From a virus (lineage: Duplodnaviria; Heunggongvirae; Uroviricota; Caudoviricetes): 30,141 nt of DNA. This document shows positions 17,259 through 27,510 of the stretch, piece after piece. The notes beneath the pieces are model-generated. The model searched no databases, had not been told where the DNA came from, and saw only the letters and a list, made by a program, of their open reading frames with translations. The translations under genes and the position numbers were made by a program. The stretch spans positions 1-30,141 of IMG/VR virus record IMGVR_UViG_2703718856_000006; one strand, given 5' to 3'. Each line of letters begins with the position of its first letter. Position 1 is the first letter of the stretch.

Positions 17259-19205
17259 TTACTGACCAGAGGATTTGGTCATGCCGCGATAGTCCAGCGG
17301 CGCCACGCCAGCATCAATACGCACTTTCGTGGCGATACCATCAGTGGTGAAGCCTTCCTGCTGATCGATGTATGGCGTGTCGACGCCGTTGAGATAAGCG
17401 ACCTCAATGGTGTCGGTGCCCTTCGCGGCAGCCAGATACCAGGCTTTCGCATCAGCTTCATCCAGACGTGGTTCGGCAATGACTTCTGCAAAGTTCTGGA
17501 TAGGGTTAACGATCCCGGCATTGATGTCTGCACCTTTAACACTGGCCGACTTGATGGTCTGATTTGCCAGAGTTTCCAGGGCGACGGGCACCAGCATGTA
17601 GGCCGGACGGATATTCAGGGTTCGCTCCCCCTCCTTCTGCAGACGCATCAGCTTGCGCGATTCGTCCAGGCTGGCCACAGAAATTGCACCCGAGCTCAGG
17701 TTCTTGTGATCGGCATGGAACAGCGCCTTTCCGTCTGAGAGTTTCGGGTTTTTGGTCAGAATGGCGTAAACCAGATCGCCAATCGTTGCTTTCGCCGCGC
17801 GCCCCATCTTCATCGGTACGTCGGTAAGCTGGTTCAGATCGTCGTTGATGATCGCCTGGCGAGTTACTGAGAAGATTTCACCATACGTGGCAAGCGCGAT
17901 GGTTTCGCCTTTGTCACTGGTAGTGATGTACTTGTACTCAGCCCCTTCGCGAACCTGTCGCAGAGAAGGGAACCCACCCATACCGACACGATGCGCCGTT
18001 TTGAAGTCCGACAGCTGGCCTTTTTTGGTCCACTGCTCGAAGGTTTCCTGCGCCTCGTCCCAGCCCTGAATCAGCGCTTTGTTCGCAACATCAAGCAGAA
18101 TGTTGCCAAAGTCAGAGGTGCTGTGGGTCAGCGCCAGGCCAACCATCTGCATCGGGTTGTAGCTGGCCACGCCGATACCTTTTTCTGTCAGGGCCATACG
18201 CGCATACTCGCGCAGCGTCATACCGTTATAAACGTTATCCCGCTCCTGACCTTCGAACCCGGCACGCGCCATCAGTGCCTGGCGAATACCATCCGCGACG
18301 AAGTTACCGTTGCCCGCATGAATATGCGGCTGAGTGGTTTTATTGGACGGCGTGGCCGTTTTACCGAGTTCTGCCAGCAGCAAATCTTTCGCCTTATCGA
18401 CGGAGCAATCAGGGTCGGCCACACACTGATTCTGCAGTTCCATGTGCTTATTACCGAACATGGCAAAGAGATCGCCGATAGCGTTAACACGGGTTTTCTG
18501 CTCAGCCAACACCTGCGCGCGGATCGCATTTTCATCCGGTGCCGGGTCTGTTTTTGCCTGCGGTGCCTGAGGCTGGGTAATAACCGGGTCACGCTGGGTA
18601 GTGTTGCGCGGCGGGGTGATCATGTTGCGAATGCTTTTTGGCATTTTTTCAAATTCCTCAATACGTTTTGAATGAATACAGGCCATAGCCTGAAGGGATG
18701 GTGTCACCTGGTCGGCAAAACCCAGTTCAAGGCACTCGCTGCCGTTCATCCAGGTTTCGTCCTCCAGCATTGCCGCAATTTCTTCGGTGGATTTTCCGGT
18801 TTTCTGTGCATAAGCCGGGATAAGAACGGATTCAACCTTGTCGAGAAGATCCGCATAGTCGCGCATATCGCTCGCGTCACCACCAGCAAACCCCCAGGGC
18901 TTATGGATCATCATCATCGTGTTTTCAGGCATGATGACCGGATTGCCTACCATCGCAATCACCGAGGCCATGGAGGCCGCCAGACCGTCGATATGTACGG
19001 TAATCGCCGCGCCGTGGTGCTTCAGCGCGTTATAAATAGCAATTCCGTCGAAGACATCACCACCGGGCGAGTTGATATAAAGGTTGATGTGGGTGACGTC
19101 CCCAAGTGCCCGGAGATCATTGACGAACTGTTTCGCCGTTACGCCCCAGTACCCGATTTCGTCATAAATAAAAATGTCGGCCTCACTGTTATTGCTGGCC
19201 TGCAT
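17259..19205 (-). CDS. Prohead protease (ClpP/S49-like) fused to major capsid protein
   Basis: Start taken at MQASNNSEADIFIYDEIGY (track extends to 19553, overlapping the portal gene). N-terminal third has peptidase motifs (INSPGGDV, ASMASVIA); C-terminal two-thirds has capsid-like sequence. Confidence 0.75.
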   Translation of the reverse strand: MQASNNSEADIFIYDEIGYWGVTAKQFVNDLRALGDVTHINLYINSPGGDVFDGIAIYNALKHHGAAITVHIDGLAASMASVIAMVGNPVIMPENTMMMIHKPWGFAGGDASDMRDYADLLDKVESVLIPAYAQKTGKSTEEIAAMLEDETWMNGSECLELGFADQVTPSLQAMACIHSKRIEEFEKMPKSIRNMITPPRNTTQRDPVITQPQAPQAKTDPAPDENAIRAQVLAEQKTRVNAIGDLFAMFGNKHMELQNQCVADPDCSVDKAKDLLLAELGKTATPSNKTTQPHIHAGNGNFVADGIRQALMARAGFEGQERDNVYNGMTLREYARMALTEKGIGVASYNPMQMVGLALTHSTSDFGNILLDVANKALIQGWDEAQETFEQWTKKGQLSDFKTAHRVGMGGFPSLRQVREGAEYKYITTSDKGETIALATYGEIFSVTRQAIINDDLNQLTDVPMKMGRAAKATIGDLVYAILTKNPKLSDGKALFHADHKNLSSGAISVASLDESRKLMRLQKEGERTLNIRPAYMLVPVALETLANQTIKSASVKGADINAGIVNPIQNFAEVIAEPRLDEADAKAWYLAAAKGTDTIEVAYLNGVDTPYIDQQEGFTTDGIATKVRIDAGVAPLDYRGMTKSSGQ

Positions 19206-19218
19206 GCGGAACCACGAA

Positions 19219-20718
19219 TTACTTTTTGCGCTGGCTTTCGGACGGTGGCGCGCCCGGTTCTTTGGCTTCGGCACTGGTGCCTCCTTTATCATTGGCGGGG
19301 TCGGTGTCAAACACCAGGCCCTGTTCACGGTTCTCGTCAACCTCAGCTTTACGGCGTGACTTAACATCATCCGGGTTGCGACCGCTGGCACGTATCCAGT
19401 CGGATTCAGTAGCAGCACCGCCGCGGATCTGCGTTTTCCAGGCATTCGCTTCTTTAACGGGATCAATCCACGGCATAACGGGCCCCGAATAAACCGCGTT
19501 ATAAAGCGAGTCCATATCAATGCCTCTCGGCAGCTTGATTTCTCCGGCAGCAATAGCCATCTTGAGCCAGGCTCGGTACATGGGCCGGGTCACTGAACCG
19601 ATGAACCAGTCCTGAAGAATCAGATAGCCGTCGGTTGACTCGACAAGCTCCTGCCGCTGGGCACTGTACGTTCCGTTGTAGTTTCTGGATGTGCTGGAAA
19701 AGCTGAGGCGACTGCCGGCGGACACGGCACGCAGCTGTCCGTTACGAAAAGATTCGAGGTTAGGGTTCGGGCGATCGGATTTAATCATCCCGATTTCTTC
19801 CCCGGCCTGCAGTTCGTCATAGAGCATACCGGGCTGAATCATCAGCTCGCGGTCATCGCTGCTTGAATCAGAATCGAAGCTCTGTCCGTCGCCTTTTTTG
19901 ATATACATGCCGAGTGCCGCAGCAATTCTGGCAGCAGTAAGCTCCGAGTCCTCGTATTCTTTCAGCGCGCTCAGACGCATCAGAACACCAGACAAAAGAG
20001 ACGTTCCGCGGGTCTGGTGCAGGCGTCGGGTGAATTTGAGATGCAGCATGTTCTCTGCATCTATCTCTTTGGTATCAAACTGACGCCCGGATACTGGCAG
20101 GCTTTTATAGACCTGATATTTTTTCGGGCGTCCCCAGTTATCGACAAAAACGCCCTGATTGAGCTGGGTGGCAGCATCGCTGTTCATCGGCACAAAGTCC
20201 GGCTCCAGCGCTTCCAGCCAGAACGGCACGCCAGCAACCGGCTGAAGACCATTTCCGGTACCGCGAACCAGCTGAGCAAATACCTCACCGTCCCGGAGCC
20301 ACGTTCGCAGCATCAGCCGCTCCAGCATTGGGCGGGTAAACTGGGTTGTGACATCTGGCCTTACGGACCATTCGCCCCACTTTCGGCGGATATCAGTGGC
20401 CAGCTTTTTAGCGATCTTCCCGTTACTCAGCATCGGATGCGGTTCAACTATGATGCCCTTCGCACCCACCACCCTTTCTTCCAGCTTGTCGAAAACGCCG
20501 ATCACCAGATCGTGGTTGTTATCCAGCCAGCGCGCCTGCTGCCTCAGCGAAACCGCCCCCATCTGGCTGAGCTGATCGGCTGAACGATTTTCCTTCTGGG
20601 CTTTGTGGGTACGCGTTTGCTTTACCGCCTCATACGCTTTAATAACTGCGCGGGCACGCAGGCGTGAGGCTTTCCAGCCTGGTGAAAACAGGCCAATCGC
20701 ATCATCTAAAAAACTCAT
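19219..20718 (-). CDS. B: Portal protein (lambda B-like)
   Basis: 499 aa between W and the protease-capsid gene; size, position and acidic C-terminus fit a lambda-type portal. Confidence 0.8.
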   Translation of the reverse strand: MSFLDDAIGLFSPGWKASRLRARAVIKAYEAVKQTRTHKAQKENRSADQLSQMGAVSLRQQARWLDNNHDLVIGVFDKLEERVVGAKGIIVEPHPMLSNGKIAKKLATDIRRKWGEWSVRPDVTTQFTRPMLERLMLRTWLRDGEVFAQLVRGTGNGLQPVAGVPFWLEALEPDFVPMNSDAATQLNQGVFVDNWGRPKKYQVYKSLPVSGRQFDTKEIDAENMLHLKFTRRLHQTRGTSLLSGVLMRLSALKEYEDSELTAARIAAALGMYIKKGDGQSFDSDSSSDDRELMIQPGMLYDELQAGEEIGMIKSDRPNPNLESFRNGQLRAVSAGSRLSFSSTSRNYNGTYSAQRQELVESTDGYLILQDWFIGSVTRPMYRAWLKMAIAAGEIKLPRGIDMDSLYNAVYSGPVMPWIDPVKEANAWKTQIRGGAATESDWIRASGRNPDDVKSRRKAEVDENREQGLVFDTDPANDKGGTSAEAKEPGAPPSESQRKK

Positions 20719-23624: not shown

Positions 23625-23650
23625 GTTTCCCGCGAGCGCGCCGCCCCGTG
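23625..23650 (-). other. cosN-like cohesive-end site
   Basis: Minus strand ACGGGGCGGCGCGCTCGCGGG versus lambda ACGGGGCGGCGACCTCGCGGG (from memory): 19 of 21 identical, about 100 bp upstream of the nu1-like start. Confidence 0.55.
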
Positions 23651-23754
23651 GTAGGCAACCCCGCCGGGAGGACCCATAAGAAAACACAGGTCCGACCGCC
23701 GTTTTGAATTCTCTTCTAAACGACTCTAGTTTGATTTGAGTATGCAATACGCGT

Positions 23755-23779
23755 AAAAAAGCCCCGCATAGGCGAGGCT
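23755..23779 (-). terminator. Rho-independent terminator after the peptidase cargo gene
   Basis: Minus-strand RNA AGCCUCGC-CUAU-GCGGGGCU (8-bp stem, one G-U) followed by U6, about 20 nt after the peptidase stop. Confidence 0.6.
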
Positions 23780-23797
23780 GGAATCAGACAGGGGGGA

Positions 23798-24700
23798 TTA
23801 AGACTGGATATTCCAAATCATTGCGTTACCGTTATGATTTTCAATGATTTTTGCCAGTGGTGCTCCACCAAAAGAATGCATGTAGCTGTGATGTATAGTC
23901 AAAACCAAATCTTGAAGTACTTGATCACTTTCAAGTTCGGTAACATTCAACCCAATTTTCTGCGCCTTATCAAAATGAATATGACGCGAGTGGGTATAGG
24001 TTGTGTGATGGTTGTTTAACTCTGAACAAACATGTGTTGCTTTTGATTCTGCCTCAGGATCATTATCAAACATGCCTGTCATAAGCCAATGCTTAACAAT
24101 CTCATTTGCCCATTTGATTGCTTTCTCACACTCGCCGATGATCGTCGGGTTTAGCTTTTGAAGAATGAACTGCCACATCTGAACAGCTGCGGGATTTTGA
24201 AAAATTTCCGTCTGCGCACGATTCCATTCTTCAATGATGGCATGGGTGGAGAAACCGTTGAACTGAGGATCAATTGGGCCAATGTTGGACTGTTTACCCA
24301 TGATGATTTCATTGGCACAACATGCAAGCATAGTTCCGCAGGACATTGAAATCATAGGAACAATTGCTCTGATGTTAGTTCCAAACTTCGACCTTAAGTA
24401 ATGCCCGATTGATTCCAAAGCGGCAATATCACCACCTGGAGTATGAAGTATCAAATCCAACCCTTTTGATACATCTAAACCATTGATGGCTGTCATCAAC
24501 CCGTTCTTATCATCATCAGTCATCTGAGTAAGATGGCGTACTTCTGCACCACCATGCTGTAACCACCCTGAGTAATATGTGATTACATTTCTTCCAGTAT
24601 GATTCGAAAGTTGAGATAAGTATTTACGGCGAACCTCATCCATAGGACTTTTATGGGCGAGAGCCGTTATCTCGCCCAGTACGTCGCTCCAATTAGGCAT
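23798..24700 (-). CDS. ClpP/crotonase-fold serine peptidase (S49/SppA/SDH-like), cargo gene
   Basis: 300 aa with ILHTPGGDIAALESIGHYLR and PMISMSCGTMLACCANEI. AT-rich, unlike neighbouring phage genes. Sits between the lysis cassette and cos. Confidence 0.6.
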   Translation of the reverse strand: MPNWSDVLGEITALAHKSPMDEVRRKYLSQLSNHTGRNVITYYSGWLQHGGAEVRHLTQMTDDDKNGLMTAINGLDVSKGLDLILHTPGGDIAALESIGHYLRSKFGTNIRAIVPMISMSCGTMLACCANEIIMGKQSNIGPIDPQFNGFSTHAIIEEWNRAQTEIFQNPAAVQMWQFILQKLNPTIIGECEKAIKWANEIVKHWLMTGMFDNDPEAESKATHVCSELNNHHTTYTHSRHIHFDKAQKIGLNVTELESDQVLQDLVLTIHHSYMHSFGGAPLAKIIENHNGNAMIWNIQS

Positions 24701-24703
24701 AAA

Positions 24704-24904
24704 TCAGTACGTGTAAAGTTGATGACTTGTAGTTTGGTTTTGCTTCGATTGTGTAGCGGTACCTTGTGAGTACCAAACACCTGTGTTTCCACTCGTACTA
24801 GTTTGCTGTGCCATTACACGAGAAGCGAAGTTGTTAACAGTTTCACCAGTCAACATTTCTGCCGGTTTGATATTGTAAACATCGTAGAACTCAGCTGGGG
24901 TCAT
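24704..24904 (-). CDS. Small hypothetical protein (66 aa) co-transcribed with the peptidase
   Basis: Strong RBS (AAGGAG, 8 nt before ATG); stop is 3 bp before the peptidase start; Thr/Ser/Gln-rich C-terminus. Confidence 0.5.
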   Translation of the reverse strand: MTPAEFYDVYNIKPAEMLTGETVNNFASRVMAQQTSTSGNTGVWYSQGTATQSKQNQTTSHQLYTY

Positions 24905-24960
24905 AATGATAGCTCCTTTTATAGCGCTACATATAGTGCCTGTGCCAAGGGGGACATACT
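24905..24960 (-). promoter_or_regulatory. Putative promoter of the cargo cassette
   Basis: Minus strand TTGGCA - 19 nt - TATAAA upstream of the RBS; spacer is longer than optimal. Confidence 0.3.
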
Positions 24961-24992
24961 ATATGTGCCATTGTTGTCATATTTAAATGTGC

Positions 24993-25011
24993 AAAAAGCC
25001 TCAAAAGAGGC
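24993..25011 (-). terminator. Possible weak terminator between Rz and the cargo cassette
   Basis: Minus-strand GCCUC-UUUU-GAGGC followed by UUUUU, in a ~250-bp AT-rich non-coding stretch. Confidence 0.35.
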
Positions 25012-25274
25012 TTGAAAAAGATGCAAAAATACTATCTATGACGTGACTATAGCTACTTACCCACAGTTTATACAAGCCAAAAATGCTAAATTCAGATAAT
25101 CCTATTCGCTGAAAAACTACACAAAAGCTACGTTCATCTTGTCATTAGATAACGTCAGTAACTTTCACTGGATCTAAGCCATTGGTGAAAAAGCTAATTG
25201 CATGATGAAGCACTGTAATGTAGCAGTTGAGGTTGTTAAATGAGAATCACCCTAACAATGTCAACGGACATTAT

Positions 25275-25811
25275 TCATTTTCGTAACTTCTCAATCTCTC
25301 GTATACCCGCCAGGTTATTGTTGCCCTTCTCAATAACAGCCAGCAAAGGTTCAATCCAGAGGACGGCCTGGCAATACGTCATTGAGCTGGCGGCAGCGGT
25401 ACTATCATCGGTTGCGTTAGTGTTCCCGGTATCGGGGTGCATTGCGCTGGCACGTAAACGGTACGCGTATTTGAGCAGCCCACCAGCGACATCAGCAGGA
25501 ACAGGCAGATCACAGGTCTTTTCACGTCGGAGAATCTCCCGGTATTCGATGACAGTTTTCTCAGTACCGGCATCGATCAGCGAGTTAAGGCGGTTGGCGT
25601 TCTCTGCTATCTGGTTAAACCGATTGAAGTTGAAAGCCTGTGTAGTTATCACCGTCGCCTGCAGCGCGTTATCATTACGTAATACCCGATTCTCACTCTG
25701 TTCTGTTTCAAGAGCTGAGCGGCTACGAACCAGTAATACGCTAAGCACTGCAATAATGATTACGACAGCCACCAGCAGAACCGCAACAATCGTAATTTTT
25801 CTGGGTTTCAT
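25275..25811 (-). CDS. Rz: Rz-like inner-membrane spanin
   Basis: N-terminal transmembrane helix (ITIVAVLLVAVVIIIAVLSVLLV) followed by a helical periplasmic domain; directly follows the endolysin. Confidence 0.8.
   Translation of the reverse strand: MKPRKITIVAVLLVAVVIIIAVLSVLLVRSRSALETEQSENRVLRNDNALQATVITTQAFNFNRFNQIAENANRLNSLIDAGTEKTVIEYREILRREKTCDLPVPADVAGGLLKYAYRLRASAMHPDTGNTNATDDSTAAASSMTYCQAVLWIEPLLAVIEKGNNNLAGIREIEKLRK
25379..25525 (-). CDS. Rz1: Rz1-like outer-membrane lipoprotein spanin, embedded in Rz
   Basis: Lies inside Rz in another frame; lipobox LVGC then proline-rich mature part (CSNTRTVYVPAQCTPIPGTLTQPMIVPLPPAQ). Start uncertain (track ORF begins at 25573). Confidence 0.7.
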   Translation of the reverse strand: MKRPVICLFLLMSLVGCSNTRTVYVPAQCTPIPGTLTQPMIVPLPPAQ

Positions 25812-26633: not shown

Positions 26634-26838
26634 AGCCTCACCTCCGATTTTTCGGATGGCGCTGTGTGTGTTTGAAAAGGGTCAGGCTTCACGGGCTGGA
26701 TTTATCAACAAAGCACGTAGCGGATGATTCCCGTGAGCCTGAAATTGATGAATATGTCTGAAATAACTAGACCATTAGTAAAACAACTCGATAAATGTGG
26801 TTAAATGAGACTACGTTCTCACAACTTAATTAGTACCA

Positions 26839-27009
26839 ATGATTATCAAGCCCTGCCCCTACTGCGGAAAGTTAATTAACCCAGAATCACTTGTGTGTAG
26901 CCACTGCCGGATAGTGAATCCTTTTGTGAAGGCCAGCAGAAGAGAAAAAGCGAAGAATGTATTAGTAATCGCTCTCGTTGCTGCTTTTTTAATTTGGATG
27001 ATTCTCTGA
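26839..27009 (+). CDS. Putative small zinc-ribbon membrane protein (56 aa), antisense to the late operon
   Basis: Hand translation: MIIKPCPYCGKLINPESLVCSHCRIVNPFVKASRREKAKNVLVIALVAAFLIWMIL. CPYC...CSHC plus a hydrophobic C-terminal helix. No clear Shine-Dalgarno; below the ORF-track length cutoff. Confidence 0.3.
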   Translation: MIIKPCPYCGKLINPESLVCSHCRIVNPFVKASRREKAKNVLVIALVAAFLIWMIL

Positions 27010-27040
27010 GTTGCCAGTTTTCAATGAAGATAATGCGGGC

Positions 27041-27067
27041 AAAAAAAGCCTGCTCGGACGAACAGGC
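27041..27067 (-). terminator. Rho-independent terminator in late leader (distal)
   Basis: Minus-strand GCCUGUUC-GUCC-GAGCAGGC (8-bp stem, one G-U) followed by U7. Confidence 0.65.
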
Positions 27068-27377
27068 ATGAAAAATAACAATACCGTCAAGGAGGTGGCG
27101 CCGGGTGCCTCCCGGTGGAACAGCCCCAGCCGACTAGTTCCGCGCAAACAAACCTGGACAAAAAAGTTTGACTGGTCGCCCCTCCGCATAGGGGGATTCA
27201 CCACACGAATAGATTAACAACATGTTAATTTTCTGGTCAATAAGATATAAGCAAATGATGACATGCAGTTTTCTTATTGCTGAGTAACTTCAATCTGGTT
27301 CAGGGCTCTGCGCGGAAGGGCTTTGACGTGTCGTGCAGCACGTCTCTACCCAAGAGCCCTGACCGGATCGCAGGCAT

Positions 27378-27404
27378 AAAAAAGCCCCGGCGGATTGCCG
27401 AGGC
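27378..27404 (-). terminator. Rho-independent terminator in late leader (proximal, tR'-like)
   Basis: Minus-strand GCCUCGGC-AAUCC-GCCGGGGC (8-bp stem, one G-U) followed by U6, about 80-100 nt downstream of the putative late promoter. Confidence 0.65.
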
Positions 27405-27481
27405 TAATTTTACAAACTGGTATATGACTATCATCTTCATGCCGCCACTTAAAGTTAAGGCAGCATATCAAAGTAGACTCA

Positions 27482-27510
27482 AATATGACGTATTTAATTG
27501 ACTTTTGCAA
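27482..27510 (-). promoter_or_regulatory. Putative late promoter (PR'-like) overlapping the Q 3' end
   Basis: Minus strand TTGCAA - 17 nt - CATATT; position matches lambda PR'/qut. Weak motif match. Confidence 0.3.

Follow-up and report, generated by a model that had tools for sequence, protein, structure and literature searches.

What does a serine protease do, together with a 66-aa protein, between the lysis genes and the packaging site of a lambdoid E. coli prophage? The locus was analysed in its window, the whole stretch of 30,141 nt. The original prediction had placed a cargo cassette between Rz and cos. This location is correct: cos (AGCGCGCCGCCC) lies at 23635-23646, about 115 nt from the cassette terminator, and on the other side the spacer runs to the Rz stop. 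All features are on the minus strand, where the 66-aa ORF is followed by the 300-aa protease ORF. They are given below from 5' to 3', with the basis of each one.

25076-25287, minus strand: AT-rich spacer that moves with the cassette and reaches the Rz stop codon (divergence of relatives from 25288)
25046-25075, minus strand: putative sigma-70-like promoter P1, with the -35 TTGTAT (25075-25070), an 18-nt spacer with CTGTGGGTAA and the -10 TATAGT (25051-25046) (conservation)
24989-25013, minus strand: terminator-like hairpin AAGCCTC-TTTT-GAGGCTT followed by TTTGCAC, about 35 nt 3' of the P1 -10 (sequence and covariation)
24929-24966, minus strand: stem-loop 2, an inverted repeat ACATATAGT - 20 nt - ACTATATGT that ends about 10 nt 5' of the RBS (covariation)
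24913-24918, minus strand: RBS AAGGAG, 8 nt 5' of the small-ORF ATG (sequence; AGGAG/GAGG kept in relatives)
24704-24904, minus strand: 66-aa ORF (ORF list)
23798-24700, minus strand: 300-aa protease ORF (ORF list)
about 23752-23779, minus strand: intrinsic terminator ending the cassette, with an 8-bp GC-rich stem (AGCCTCGCCTATGCGGGGCT) and TTTTTT (terminator scan)

The borders of the mobile unit can be read from related prophages. On the right, the genomes H101 and H102 are 98% identical in Rz-lysozyme-holin and diverge from 25288. On the left, the border falls at the terminator, where matches of other prophages begin at window positions 23743 and 23754 (query positions 214 and 225). By this comparison, the mobile unit is about 23750-25287 and includes the conserved leader. 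It is larger than first proposed; its end had been set at 25011, and the divergence of relatives extends it to about 25287. The whole spacer 5' of the small ORF (24905-25274, 370 nt, GC 0.365) ends at the Rz stop. The unit had also been described as AT-rich relative to its flanks, and it is. Its GC is 0.408, compared with 0.532 for the remaining window, and every other 1533-nt window within the 30,141 nt has at least 0.464, which makes it the lowest of its size.

Among 5426 complete E. coli genomes, 42 have the cassette, in every case within a prophage; the head and replication modules of these prophages differ. The pair occupies two slots in enterobacterial lambdoids, Rz-to-cos/terminase and Q-to-lysis (the latter includes E. 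coli Nissle 1917). The pair is missing from prophages whose lysis cassette is 98% identical, and their slot holds different cargo (e.g. L100). Its earlier description as accessory cargo is right. Several features of a moron are seen: presence or absence between conserved neighbours, the same cassette beside different head modules, and a deviant GC. As for its own signals, it has the conserved promoter-like P1 and a 3' terminator, with the terminator-like hairpin between P1 and the genes. On these comparative grounds, the cassette is moron-type accessory cargo of a lambdoid/HK97-like E. coli prophage and not a core phage function. It resembles the lambdoid morons (bor, lom, stx positions) in being an insertion whose GC departs from that of its surroundings, in its Rz-cos or Q-lysis slot, and in its putative promoter and terminator. 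Nevertheless, it differs from them in its two genes and structured leader, and its target is probably phages instead of the animal host.

Homologs with 49-84% identity are present in more than 20 bacterial phyla and in Methanosarcinales. The pair was found in only 7 of 50,697 sequenced phage isolates. Further homologous pairs adjoin an integrase or follow tail-fibre genes, and some loci have no phage genes nearby. The neighbours of the pair represent 134 Pfam families among 123 proteins. Only integrases, methylases and AAA_21 (AriA-like in PADLOC) recur, with BrxL present once; the flanks are otherwise unrelated, and defence genes among them are few. The spread pattern of the pair is typical of defence or toxin-antitoxin genes.

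The leader presents, from 5' to 3', a promoter-like element, a terminator-like hairpin and a second stem-loop. P1 is kept in 15 enterobacterial variants with dS>1 in their coding regions, and its spacer motif CTGTGGGTAA occurs once in the window. P1 presumably acts as a promoter. A promoter had been predicted before; the putative promoter that relatives keep is P1 at 25075-25046, outside the span then reported. The site probably meant was the scan-predicted TTTAAA-18-TATAGT at 24987-24958, whose -10 is not kept in relatives. The P1 motif follows Q genes of three different families and is therefore part of the module. We also asked whether P1 copies the late promoter of the phage. We discarded this idea, given that the pR' region of the window (downstream of Q) differs and the three Q families that P1 follows are unrelated.

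The hairpin after P1 shows compensatory changes in relatives, with 89-93% of cells paired in helices 1-2. It might be an attenuator or an insulator. Stem-loop 2 has 9 pairs and 94.8% of cells paired. Both bases have changed at three of the pairs (the central one is AU, GC or CG), and its loop measures 16 to 26 nt in relatives. It could be either an RNA stem or a palindromic operator. The minimum free energy fold pairs the leader 5' end with the start codon (z-score -1.88). This long-range pairing is not kept, and it was rejected. A search of Rfam for known RNA families gave chance-level matches only. The promoter and terminator scan of the window was itself at chance level (6 promoter-like sites versus 4.2 expected), so the support for the regulatory elements comes from conservation. 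A terminator had been expected, and an 8-bp GC-rich stem with a T-run lies near 23760-23779. Leader conservation, and a partner at 105 of 106 loci, agree with the original view that the two genes belong together under regulatory signals of their own.

The larger gene had been read as a 300-aa ClpP/SppA/SDH-like peptidase starting 3 bp after the small ORF, and both parts of this reading hold. The gap is 3 nt (TGA TTT ATG). The protein matches Pfam PF01972 SDH_protease over residues 22-255 (81.2 bits versus a gathering threshold of 31.3; 8e-23) and phrog_11747 (2e-138). Its AF2 model is confident (pLDDT 90.7), and the best PDB folds in Foldseek are ClpP and SppA. It is an SDH-type serine protease of the ClpP/S49 fold. 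It misses the equivalog cut-off of NCBIfam NF047768 Clp_like_SDH (95.9 versus 250 bits) and is a sister clade of the one modelled there. The N-terminus MPNW is invariant, so the 300-aa start is right and the 281-aa PGAP models are mis-started. Homologs longer than usual (320-348 aa) end in Q/P-rich C-terminal tails. Their extra length is this tail and not a natural fusion with the small protein, a possibility that we discarded.

Ser120 aligns with the catalytic serine of ClpP 1y7o and of 1510-N (2deo/3bpp), and the oxyanion-region motif HTPGG corresponds to residues 86-90. Ser120 (MSCGT), Asp144 (PIDPQ) and histidines 237, 240, 270 and 271 are invariant in 50 homologs. Judged by spacing, Asp144 stands at the ClpP His position. 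The candidate catalytic triad is then Ser120, Asp144 and one of the four C-terminal histidines. Given these invariant residues and the confident ClpP/SppA-like model, the protease is probably active. Like ClpP, SppA and NfeD(1510-N) (MEROPS S14, S49), it has the core fold, the TPGG motif and a nucleophile Ser placed in a turn of the G-x-S-x-G-T type. However, it is 10-17% identical to them and has an extra helical C-terminal half (about 152-300). Compared with ClpP, Asp replaces His, and the conserved His lies further downstream (Ser-Asp-His order). It lacks their ATPase partner or membrane anchor, but has an obligatory 55-75-aa partner. The sequences of the two cassette proteins, read by eye, show neither a signal peptide nor a membrane segment.

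The protease is distinct from the head protease, as had been claimed. The window carries its own ClpP-like protease/capsid fusion at 17262-19274 (NF045540, 997 bits). The cassette protease scores 20.9 with the head-maturation family NF045542 (cut-off 120; 2.8e-4) and 6e-5 with phrog_53, and its gene lies across cos from the head genes. The phage head-maturation proteases (lambda C, HK97 gp4 type, ClpP-related prohead) have a distant fold relation to it. Unlike them, it stands outside the head module, far below the family cut-offs, and is missing from most related prophages.

The small ORF had been described as having a strong RBS, and AAGGAG indeed lies 8 nt before its ATG. It has dN/dS values of 0.04-0.13, against relatives with saturated synonymous sites, so it is a real gene. 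In identical E. coli copies, PGAP leaves it unannotated. The 66-aa protein matches phrog_25714 (3.9e-44) and has no match in Pfam or PDB. Two helices are predicted (3-9 and 23-36), and then an extended Ser/Thr/Gln-rich tail with an invariant Tyr45 within V-W-Y-S and the C-terminus LYTY. The AF2 model (pLDDT 66) consists of two short helices and a disordered tail. No DNA-binding fold or antitoxin family was recognised in it with Pfam, PDB and the AF2 model.

At every enteric or Pseudomonas-type locus, a match to the small-protein profile lies beside the protease. Considering many bacterial phyla and some archaea, an adjacent small ORF is present at 105 of 106 distinct loci. The bare presence of an ORF is too weak a test (51 of 54 loci versus 0.32-0.62 in controls), and we used profile and motif tests instead. 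A hydrophobic-x-Y-[SAT] motif is found in 69% of the partner ORFs and in 5.3% of the control ORFs (Fisher p 6e-42). Judged by this co-occurrence, the small protein is a near-universal partner of the protease across phyla. The partner evolves fast, and the enzyme is highly conserved. The two main flavours of the small protein align in their N-terminal 20 residues alone (hhalign E 1.3e-3, probability 18%). The small ORF is mostly upstream of the protease and sometimes downstream, the order being reversed in Clostridia-type loci. The two ORFs share a frame here. A readthrough fusion was nevertheless rejected, since in relatives the ORFs may overlap by up to 35 nt or lie up to 64 nt apart, without a constant frame. 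An apparent AKLE/AKLV C-terminal motif of the small ORFs was an overlap artefact, the conserved ATGCCNAAYTGG (MPNW) in another frame. The conservation of the partner across phyla, the extension of the cassette to the Rz stop and the structured conserved leader had escaped the first reading of the locus.

Reasonably likely, in our judgement, is that the pair is a lysogen-expressed, protease-based anti-phage module (superinfection-exclusion or abortive-infection) in which the small protein regulates the protease. The composition of the pair, two adjacent co-oriented genes for a hypothetical protein and a PF01972 protease, presumably matches that of DefenseFinder FS_HP_SDH_sah (hypothetical protein + SDH_sah). 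SDH_sah is the former Pfam name of PF01972. Fillol-Salom et al. (Cell 185:3248, 2022) reportedly described such a "hypothetical protein + SDH" pair from phage-inducible chromosomal islands as anti-phage, and it was probably validated. By this description, both are two adjacent genes on mobile elements that travel with phages or compete against them. The reference system is on phage-inducible chromosomal islands and the present copy in a prophage late region. With 95.9 versus 250 bits for NF047768, the protease of FS_HP_SDH_sah may belong to another SDH clade. A full-text literature search for this name gave no match, and one on SDH, PF01972, S49 or ClpP-like proteases in defence returned nothing on the pair. 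Neither protein matches a PADLOC 2.0.0 model; this counts against the anti-phage reading, as does the small number of defence genes among the neighbours.

Two other systems are comparable. The ietAS protease is subtilisin-like. ietAS (Gao_Iet) has a serine protease as toxin/effector, a co-encoded AAA ATPase partner, and both stabilisation and anti-phage roles (PMC13069673); the protease-plus-partner logic is similar, but the systems are not homologous. The Tai (tail assembly inhibition) genes are phage-encoded immunity genes upstream of the packaging module, with population-level protection (PMC11364771). By its description, Tai resembles the cassette in this placement; it differs in being a single gene, with no protease mentioned (PMC11364771).

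An abortive-infection or toxin-like role had been suggested, and it remains the best-supported class from context and architecture. One rival is a toxin-antitoxin-like addiction module, where a labile small protein checks a protease toxin and the pair serves mainly to keep the prophage or other mobile element stable, not to stop phages. The layout is classic, with a small upstream gene that has a strong RBS and is tightly coupled to a larger one, and a palindrome adjoins the RBS. The order of the genes can flip, the partner evolves faster than the enzyme, the pair is scattered over mobile elements, and ietAS is a precedent of a serine-protease toxin-antitoxin pair that is also anti-phage (PMC13069673). 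However, neither an HTH, RHH, AbrB or similar fold nor an antitoxin family is recognisable in the small protein (Pfam, PDB, AF2), there is no PADLOC or toxin-antitoxin model match, and such a role can coexist with defence. We consider addiction as the main role improbable. A role that benefits the phage itself, as a counter-defence protease against host immune proteins or as a late lytic processing helper, is likewise rather unlikely. In every lambdoid copy the pair is inside the late operon and co-oriented, so that antitermination by Q would lead to its strong transcription, and the lysis-to-terminase slot of some relatives (L189, L190) holds an Acb2/Tad1-like anti-defence gene. Against this role stand its own conserved putative promoter and flanking terminators, the pairs near integrases or at loci without nearby phage genes, the rarity in sequenced phage isolates, and the closely related prophages without the pair.

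The invariant Tyr in a short motif, within a tail otherwise variable and disordered, could also mark a small precursor that the always adjacent protease cuts at Tyr-Ser, freeing a bioactive or signalling peptide. We regard this as quite improbable. The neighbours include no linked exporter, modification enzyme or receptor gene, no signal peptide is seen by inspection, and outside the motif the small protein is too variable for a conserved signal. The suggestion of a virulence module fared poorly. A lysogenic-conversion or virulence factor directed at the animal host or at the cell envelope would fit the bor gene, which occupies the Rz-cos slot of lambda-like prophages, and the numerous clinical isolates among carrier strains. 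But cheese, pork, frog and wastewater isolates also carry the cassette, close homologs come from methanogens and from bacteria of soil, groundwater and the rumen, and both proteins look cytoplasmic by inspection (no signal peptide or membrane segment). This reading is very improbable.

If the pair is an anti-phage module, it might work as follows. The cassette would be expressed in the lysogen from P1, whose conservation and structure were described above. The hairpin after P1 would be expected to keep expression low by attenuation. Lying between P1 and the genes, it might make lysogen expression very low, a point against the reading. The two genes, separated by 3 nt here and overlapping in many relatives, would be translated together by coupling. 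The product would be an active cytoplasmic protease with the ClpP fold and the conserved residues. The small protein would dock on it through its N-terminal helices, and the hydrophobic-x-Tyr-Ser segment would lie in the substrate groove, so that the enzyme stays latent or its specificity is set. This arrangement is suggested by the universal co-occurrence, the motif, and the disorder of the segment when modelled alone. Infection by another phage would release or redirect the protease, which would cut phage or host proteins and stop phage production. When its own prophage grows lytically, polymerase that starts at the late promoter and is modified by Q would pass the cassette terminators.

A more specific version is doubtful, although conceivable. 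The pair could be a cross-domain immune switch, with the small protein as a bait or pro-inhibitor whose hydrophobic-x-Tyr-Ser segment occupies the protease and is perhaps cut by it. Infection would flip the complex to its active state, and the leader might also sense the processive antitermination of an incoming lambdoid.

The comparative work defines an obligatory small partner and singles out its invariant Tyr-Ser segment, along with Ser120, Asp144 and the conserved histidines of the protease. The module is very widely exchanged, with identity of 50% or higher between E. coli and Methanosarcinales. In public annotation, the E. coli copies lack the small gene and have a wrong start for the protease. 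The cassette adds a documented example to the cargo hotspot between lysis and packaging in lambdoids. Tractable carriers of the pair include E. coli Nissle 1917, which serves both as a probiotic and as an engineering chassis, and the resistance of this strain to phages matters in practice. If the anti-phage reading is true, the pair would be among the smallest protease-based immune modules known. If the immune switch is also true, it would represent a mechanistically new class of protease-based immunity, common to bacteria and methanogenic archaea.

The cassette between Rz and cos is a real, well-delimited cargo unit. Its anatomy is the one given by the original prediction: two ORFs, a ribosome-binding site and a terminator, in the Rz-to-cos position. 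These features lie on the minus strand. In order of transcription, the features are:

26633-26355, minus: holin
26383-25811, minus: lysozyme
25811-25275, minus: Rz
370 nt between Rz and the 66-aa ORF, minus: AT-rich spacer
25075-25070 (-35, TTGTAT) and 25051-25046 (-10, TATAGT), minus: conserved, predicted sigma-70-like promoter, P1
25013-24989, minus: GC-rich, terminator-like hairpin with T-run, about 35 nt downstream of the promoter
24929-24966, minus: inverted repeat with 8-11 nt arms, separated by about 10 nt from the ribosome-binding site downstream
24904-24704, minus: 66-aa ORF, AAGGAG 8 nt upstream
24700-23798, minus: 300-aa ORF, after a 3-nt gap
23779-23760, minus: intrinsic terminator past the 300-aa ORF
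23635-23646: cohesive-end sequence (cos), downstream of the cassette terminator
from 23529, after cos: DUF1441 protein (small-terminase position) and large terminase

As predicted, the cassette has a lower GC content (0.408) than the remaining window (0.532), where the minimum among other 1.5-kb stretches is 0.464. The 300-aa peptidase had also been distinguished from the head protease. This holds: the latter is encoded at 17262-19274, where a ClpP-like protease is fused to the major capsid protein (NF045540, 997 bits).

Of 5426 complete E. coli genomes, 42 have an identical or near-identical cassette, in a prophage in every case. The head module varies among these prophages (HK97-like or lambda-like), and so does the neighbouring cargo, either a Fur-regulated protein or KilA-N with a head-fibre protein. 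The matches start at window positions 23743-23754, directly beyond the terminator. At the other end, two genomes with Rz, lysozyme and holin 98% identical to the window diverge from position 25288, and three unrelated genes fill the slot. Therefore, the mobile unit spans approximately 23750-25287 and includes the whole AT-rich spacer. The unit proposed at 23755-25011 was real but too short.

An HMM search places the 300-aa protein, expected to have a ClpP fold, in PF01972 (ClpP-like SDH-type serine proteinase; 81 bits, cut-off 31). It also matches phrog_11747, of unknown function. The cut-off of the curated NCBIfam SDH model is missed (95.9 versus 250 bits), so the protease belongs to a sister clade of the modelled one. 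The N-terminus MPNW is invariant in fifty homologs with 55-84% identity, and from one phylum to another. It means that the 300-aa start is correct, and that the 281-aa RefSeq/PGAP models of several E. coli genomes (among loci L001-L004), which begin 19 codons late, are mis-started. Other invariant residues include H86-T-P-G-G90, Ser120 (in MS[AC]GT), Asp144 (in P-x-D-P-Q), His237, His240, His270 and His271. In a profile alignment, Ser120 takes the position of the catalytic serine both in ClpP (1y7o) and in 1510-N, an archaeal protease. Asp144 lies at the ClpP histidine position, judged by spacing; this placement would fit the Ser-Asp-His order from which the family is named. The AlphaFold model is confident (pLDDT 90.7), and among solved structures it comes closest to ClpP and signal peptide peptidase A, with an identity of only 10-17%. 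The query TM-score is about 0.4, owing to the C-terminal half (about 152-300), which forms an additional helical region. Structure and profile comparison gave no solved structure for the family. The candidate catalytic residues are intact in a ClpP/SppA-like fold, and the protein is presumably enzymatically active. Five homologs (P0065, P0068, P0092, P0096 and P0117, one labelled Dehalobacter) carry a Gln/Pro-rich low-complexity C-terminal tail of 20-45 residues that is missing from the E. coli protease.

The small protein is an obligatory, conserved partner of the protease. Against relatives with saturated synonymous sites (dS above 1), the 66-aa ORF shows dN/dS values of 0.04-0.13, so it is a real gene. 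RefSeq/PGAP leaves it unannotated in E. coli genomes with the identical cassette (L001-L004). A word-based search recovered close relatives only. Across 80 viral contigs and 80 species-representative genomes, an ORF of 50-90 aa adjoins nearly every protease gene; counted by distinct loci, 105 of 106 have it. A profile built from enteric and Pseudomonas-type small proteins matches the protease neighbour in all loci of these types (E 1e-9 to 1e-27). In three viral loci with no upstream small ORF, the homolog lies directly downstream of the protease, and eight loci of Clostridia and other anaerobes also show the inverted order. The motif hydrophobic-x-Tyr-[Ser/Ala/Thr] occurs in 69% of the adjacent small ORFs, compared with 5.3% of same-sized ORFs that do not adjoin the protease (Fisher p 6e-42). 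Tyr45 is the sole invariant residue in the family alignments. Gordonia phage BeeGee has a protease 37.5% identical to that of the window, and an unannotated 58-aa ORF ending in ...HVRYSTSATR (V-R-Y-S-T-S motif; L181 3325-3501 = MW601219.1 26498-26674) abuts its start (gene 31). The partnership thus extends to actinophages.

A second flavour of small protein carries I-x-E-I-F-x-x-L-G-L-x-x-E-E-x-R, and the two flavours have only the N-terminal helix motif in common (hhalign E 1.3e-3). Modelled alone, the small protein of the window forms two short helices, at 3-9 and 23-36, and the tail that bears the Tyr motif is disordered (pLDDT 66). It has no Pfam family and no solved-structure match. The A-K/E/Q-L-E/V ending of many partner ORFs was rejected as a protein motif. 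It is the conserved protease start, ATGCCNAAYTGG, read out of frame; the two genes thus have 17-29 nt in common (L109, L124, L138, L145, L150, L152, L169 and others).

The region upstream of the small gene is structured and conserved. We aligned fifteen enterobacterial variants, whose small proteins, in the subset compared, are 28% to 85% identical to that of the window. Three non-coding elements are conserved: the promoter, the hairpin and the inverted repeat. The P1 spacer has 18 nt and includes CTGTGGGTAA. The hairpin keeps its pairing while its sequence varies. In the inverted repeat, the central pair is AU, GC or CG, and the loop has 16-26 nt. RNAalifold recovers both hairpins. On this structure, 93% of cells pair, versus only 27-59% in slid controls; double-change cells number 25 against 7.9 in shuffles (0/500 reach 25). 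The leader has no Rfam match. The hairpin could be an attenuator of P1 transcripts, an insulator of the cassette, or the element that defines a short RNA; with P1, it might give a terminated RNA of roughly 55 nt. The inverted repeat is a candidate RNA stem or a candidate operator.

A phage late promoter was rejected as the identity of P1, from which the window pR' downstream of Q (PF06323, 27497-28183) differs. The window pR' region is conserved with that of E. coli Nissle 1917, and the P1 motif also occurs downstream of three unrelated Q families. The 860 nt between Q and holin (26634-27496, minus strand) hold no long ORF or tRNA gene. Near 27500-27450 this stretch has the conserved pR'-like sequence, and at least two hairpins in it resemble terminators (about 27400 and about 27060). 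In the otherwise similar FAM21845 prophage, it holds three tRNAs and another gene.

Homologs with 49-84% identity occur in Proteobacteria, Firmicutes, Actinobacteria, Bacteroidetes, Planctomycetes, Verrucomicrobia, Nitrospirae, Acidobacteria, Chloroflexi, Elusimicrobia and Spirochaetes, and archaeal ones in Methanosarcinales. Among about 100,000 species-representative genomes, at least 391 stretches encode a relative; among sequenced phage isolates, carriers of the pair are only 7 of 50,697. The flanking genes of different loci are unrelated (134 Pfam families in 123 nearest neighbours). The only recurrent ones are integrases (6), DNA methylases (3), AAA_21 ATPases (3; AriA-like in PADLOC) and endolysin amidases (2), and a BrxL homolog is present once.

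Enterobacterial pairs are mobile and occupy the two classic cargo slots of lambdoid phages. In the window and in EC14 (beside bor), the pair lies between Rz and cos/terminase. The second slot, between Q and the lysis genes, is the position of stx in Stx phages, and includes the Nissle 1917 copy. Outside enterobacterial lambdoid slots, the pair adjoins an integrase at the end of a prophage (Pseudomonas simiae), follows tail-fibre genes (Proteus) or late regulator C (Mu-like Shewanella phage), or is next to HicAB (Porphyromonas prophages). Defence and toxin-antitoxin systems, unlike core phage functions, typically show this pattern of a self-contained pair that moves between variable slots of mobile elements in many phyla.

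The pair of Nissle 1917, a probiotic strain (L096 7816-8934 = NZ_CP022686.1 454923-456041), has 70% nucleotide identity to the window version, also in engineered derivatives of the strain. Its neighbours are Q on one side and a DNA methylase on the other. The prophage is lambdoid, and its cos region matches that of the window. Enterobacter/Klebsiella prophages with the pair after Q have an Acb2/Tad1-hairpin gene, anti-CBASS/anti-Thoeris sponge-like, in the lysis-to-terminase slot (L189 11573-11917; L190 12136-12420). Such phages would carry putative defence and anti-defence cargo in neighbouring hotspots.

The best-supported explanation is a two-component, protease-based module, presumably expressed in the lysogen, that would act on superinfecting phages. 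Control of the protease would fall to the small protein, as an inhibitor or a specificity factor; most simply, its helices would dock and place the Tyr-Ser segment in the substrate groove. Some trigger would then activate the module, with a probable anti-phage outcome. The layout is also compatible with toxin-antitoxin addiction, which would not exclude defence alongside. A role that benefits the phage, such as counter-defence or late processing, agrees with the late-operon position; it fits poorly with a cassette that has its own putative promoter, occurs at non-phage loci and is missing from close relatives. Maturation of the small protein into a peptide by the protease lacks linked genes, as an exporter or receptor never accompanies the pair. 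Virulence, suggested in the original prediction, is an unlikely role, since both proteins look cytoplasmic and methanogens have them too.

For phage-encoded immune genes (Tai), the predominant location is upstream of the packaging module (PMC11364771), which supports the lysis-to-packaging slot as an immunity hotspot. Tai is a single gene, unrelated to this two-gene cassette. No PADLOC 2.0.0 model matches either protein. DefenseFinder, which uses 'FS_' names (for example, FS_Sma), has FS_HP_SDH_sah, a reportedly validated 'hypothetical protein + SDH_sah' system; SDH_sah is the former Pfam identifier of PF01972. It reportedly comes from the work of Fillol-Salom and colleagues (Cell, 2022) on phage-inducible chromosomal islands. 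The composition is that of our pair, and this likeness makes the identity a strong lead; the name was not found in the published full text searched.

The pair is probably a member of an already-validated, mechanistically unexplained two-gene system. What is new is the definition of the universal small partner and of the Tyr-Ser motif in it, a gene order that is flexible, a spread across domains, a conserved leader, the errors of annotation at the E. coli copies (missed small gene and late protease start) and the homologous pair in E. coli Nissle 1917.
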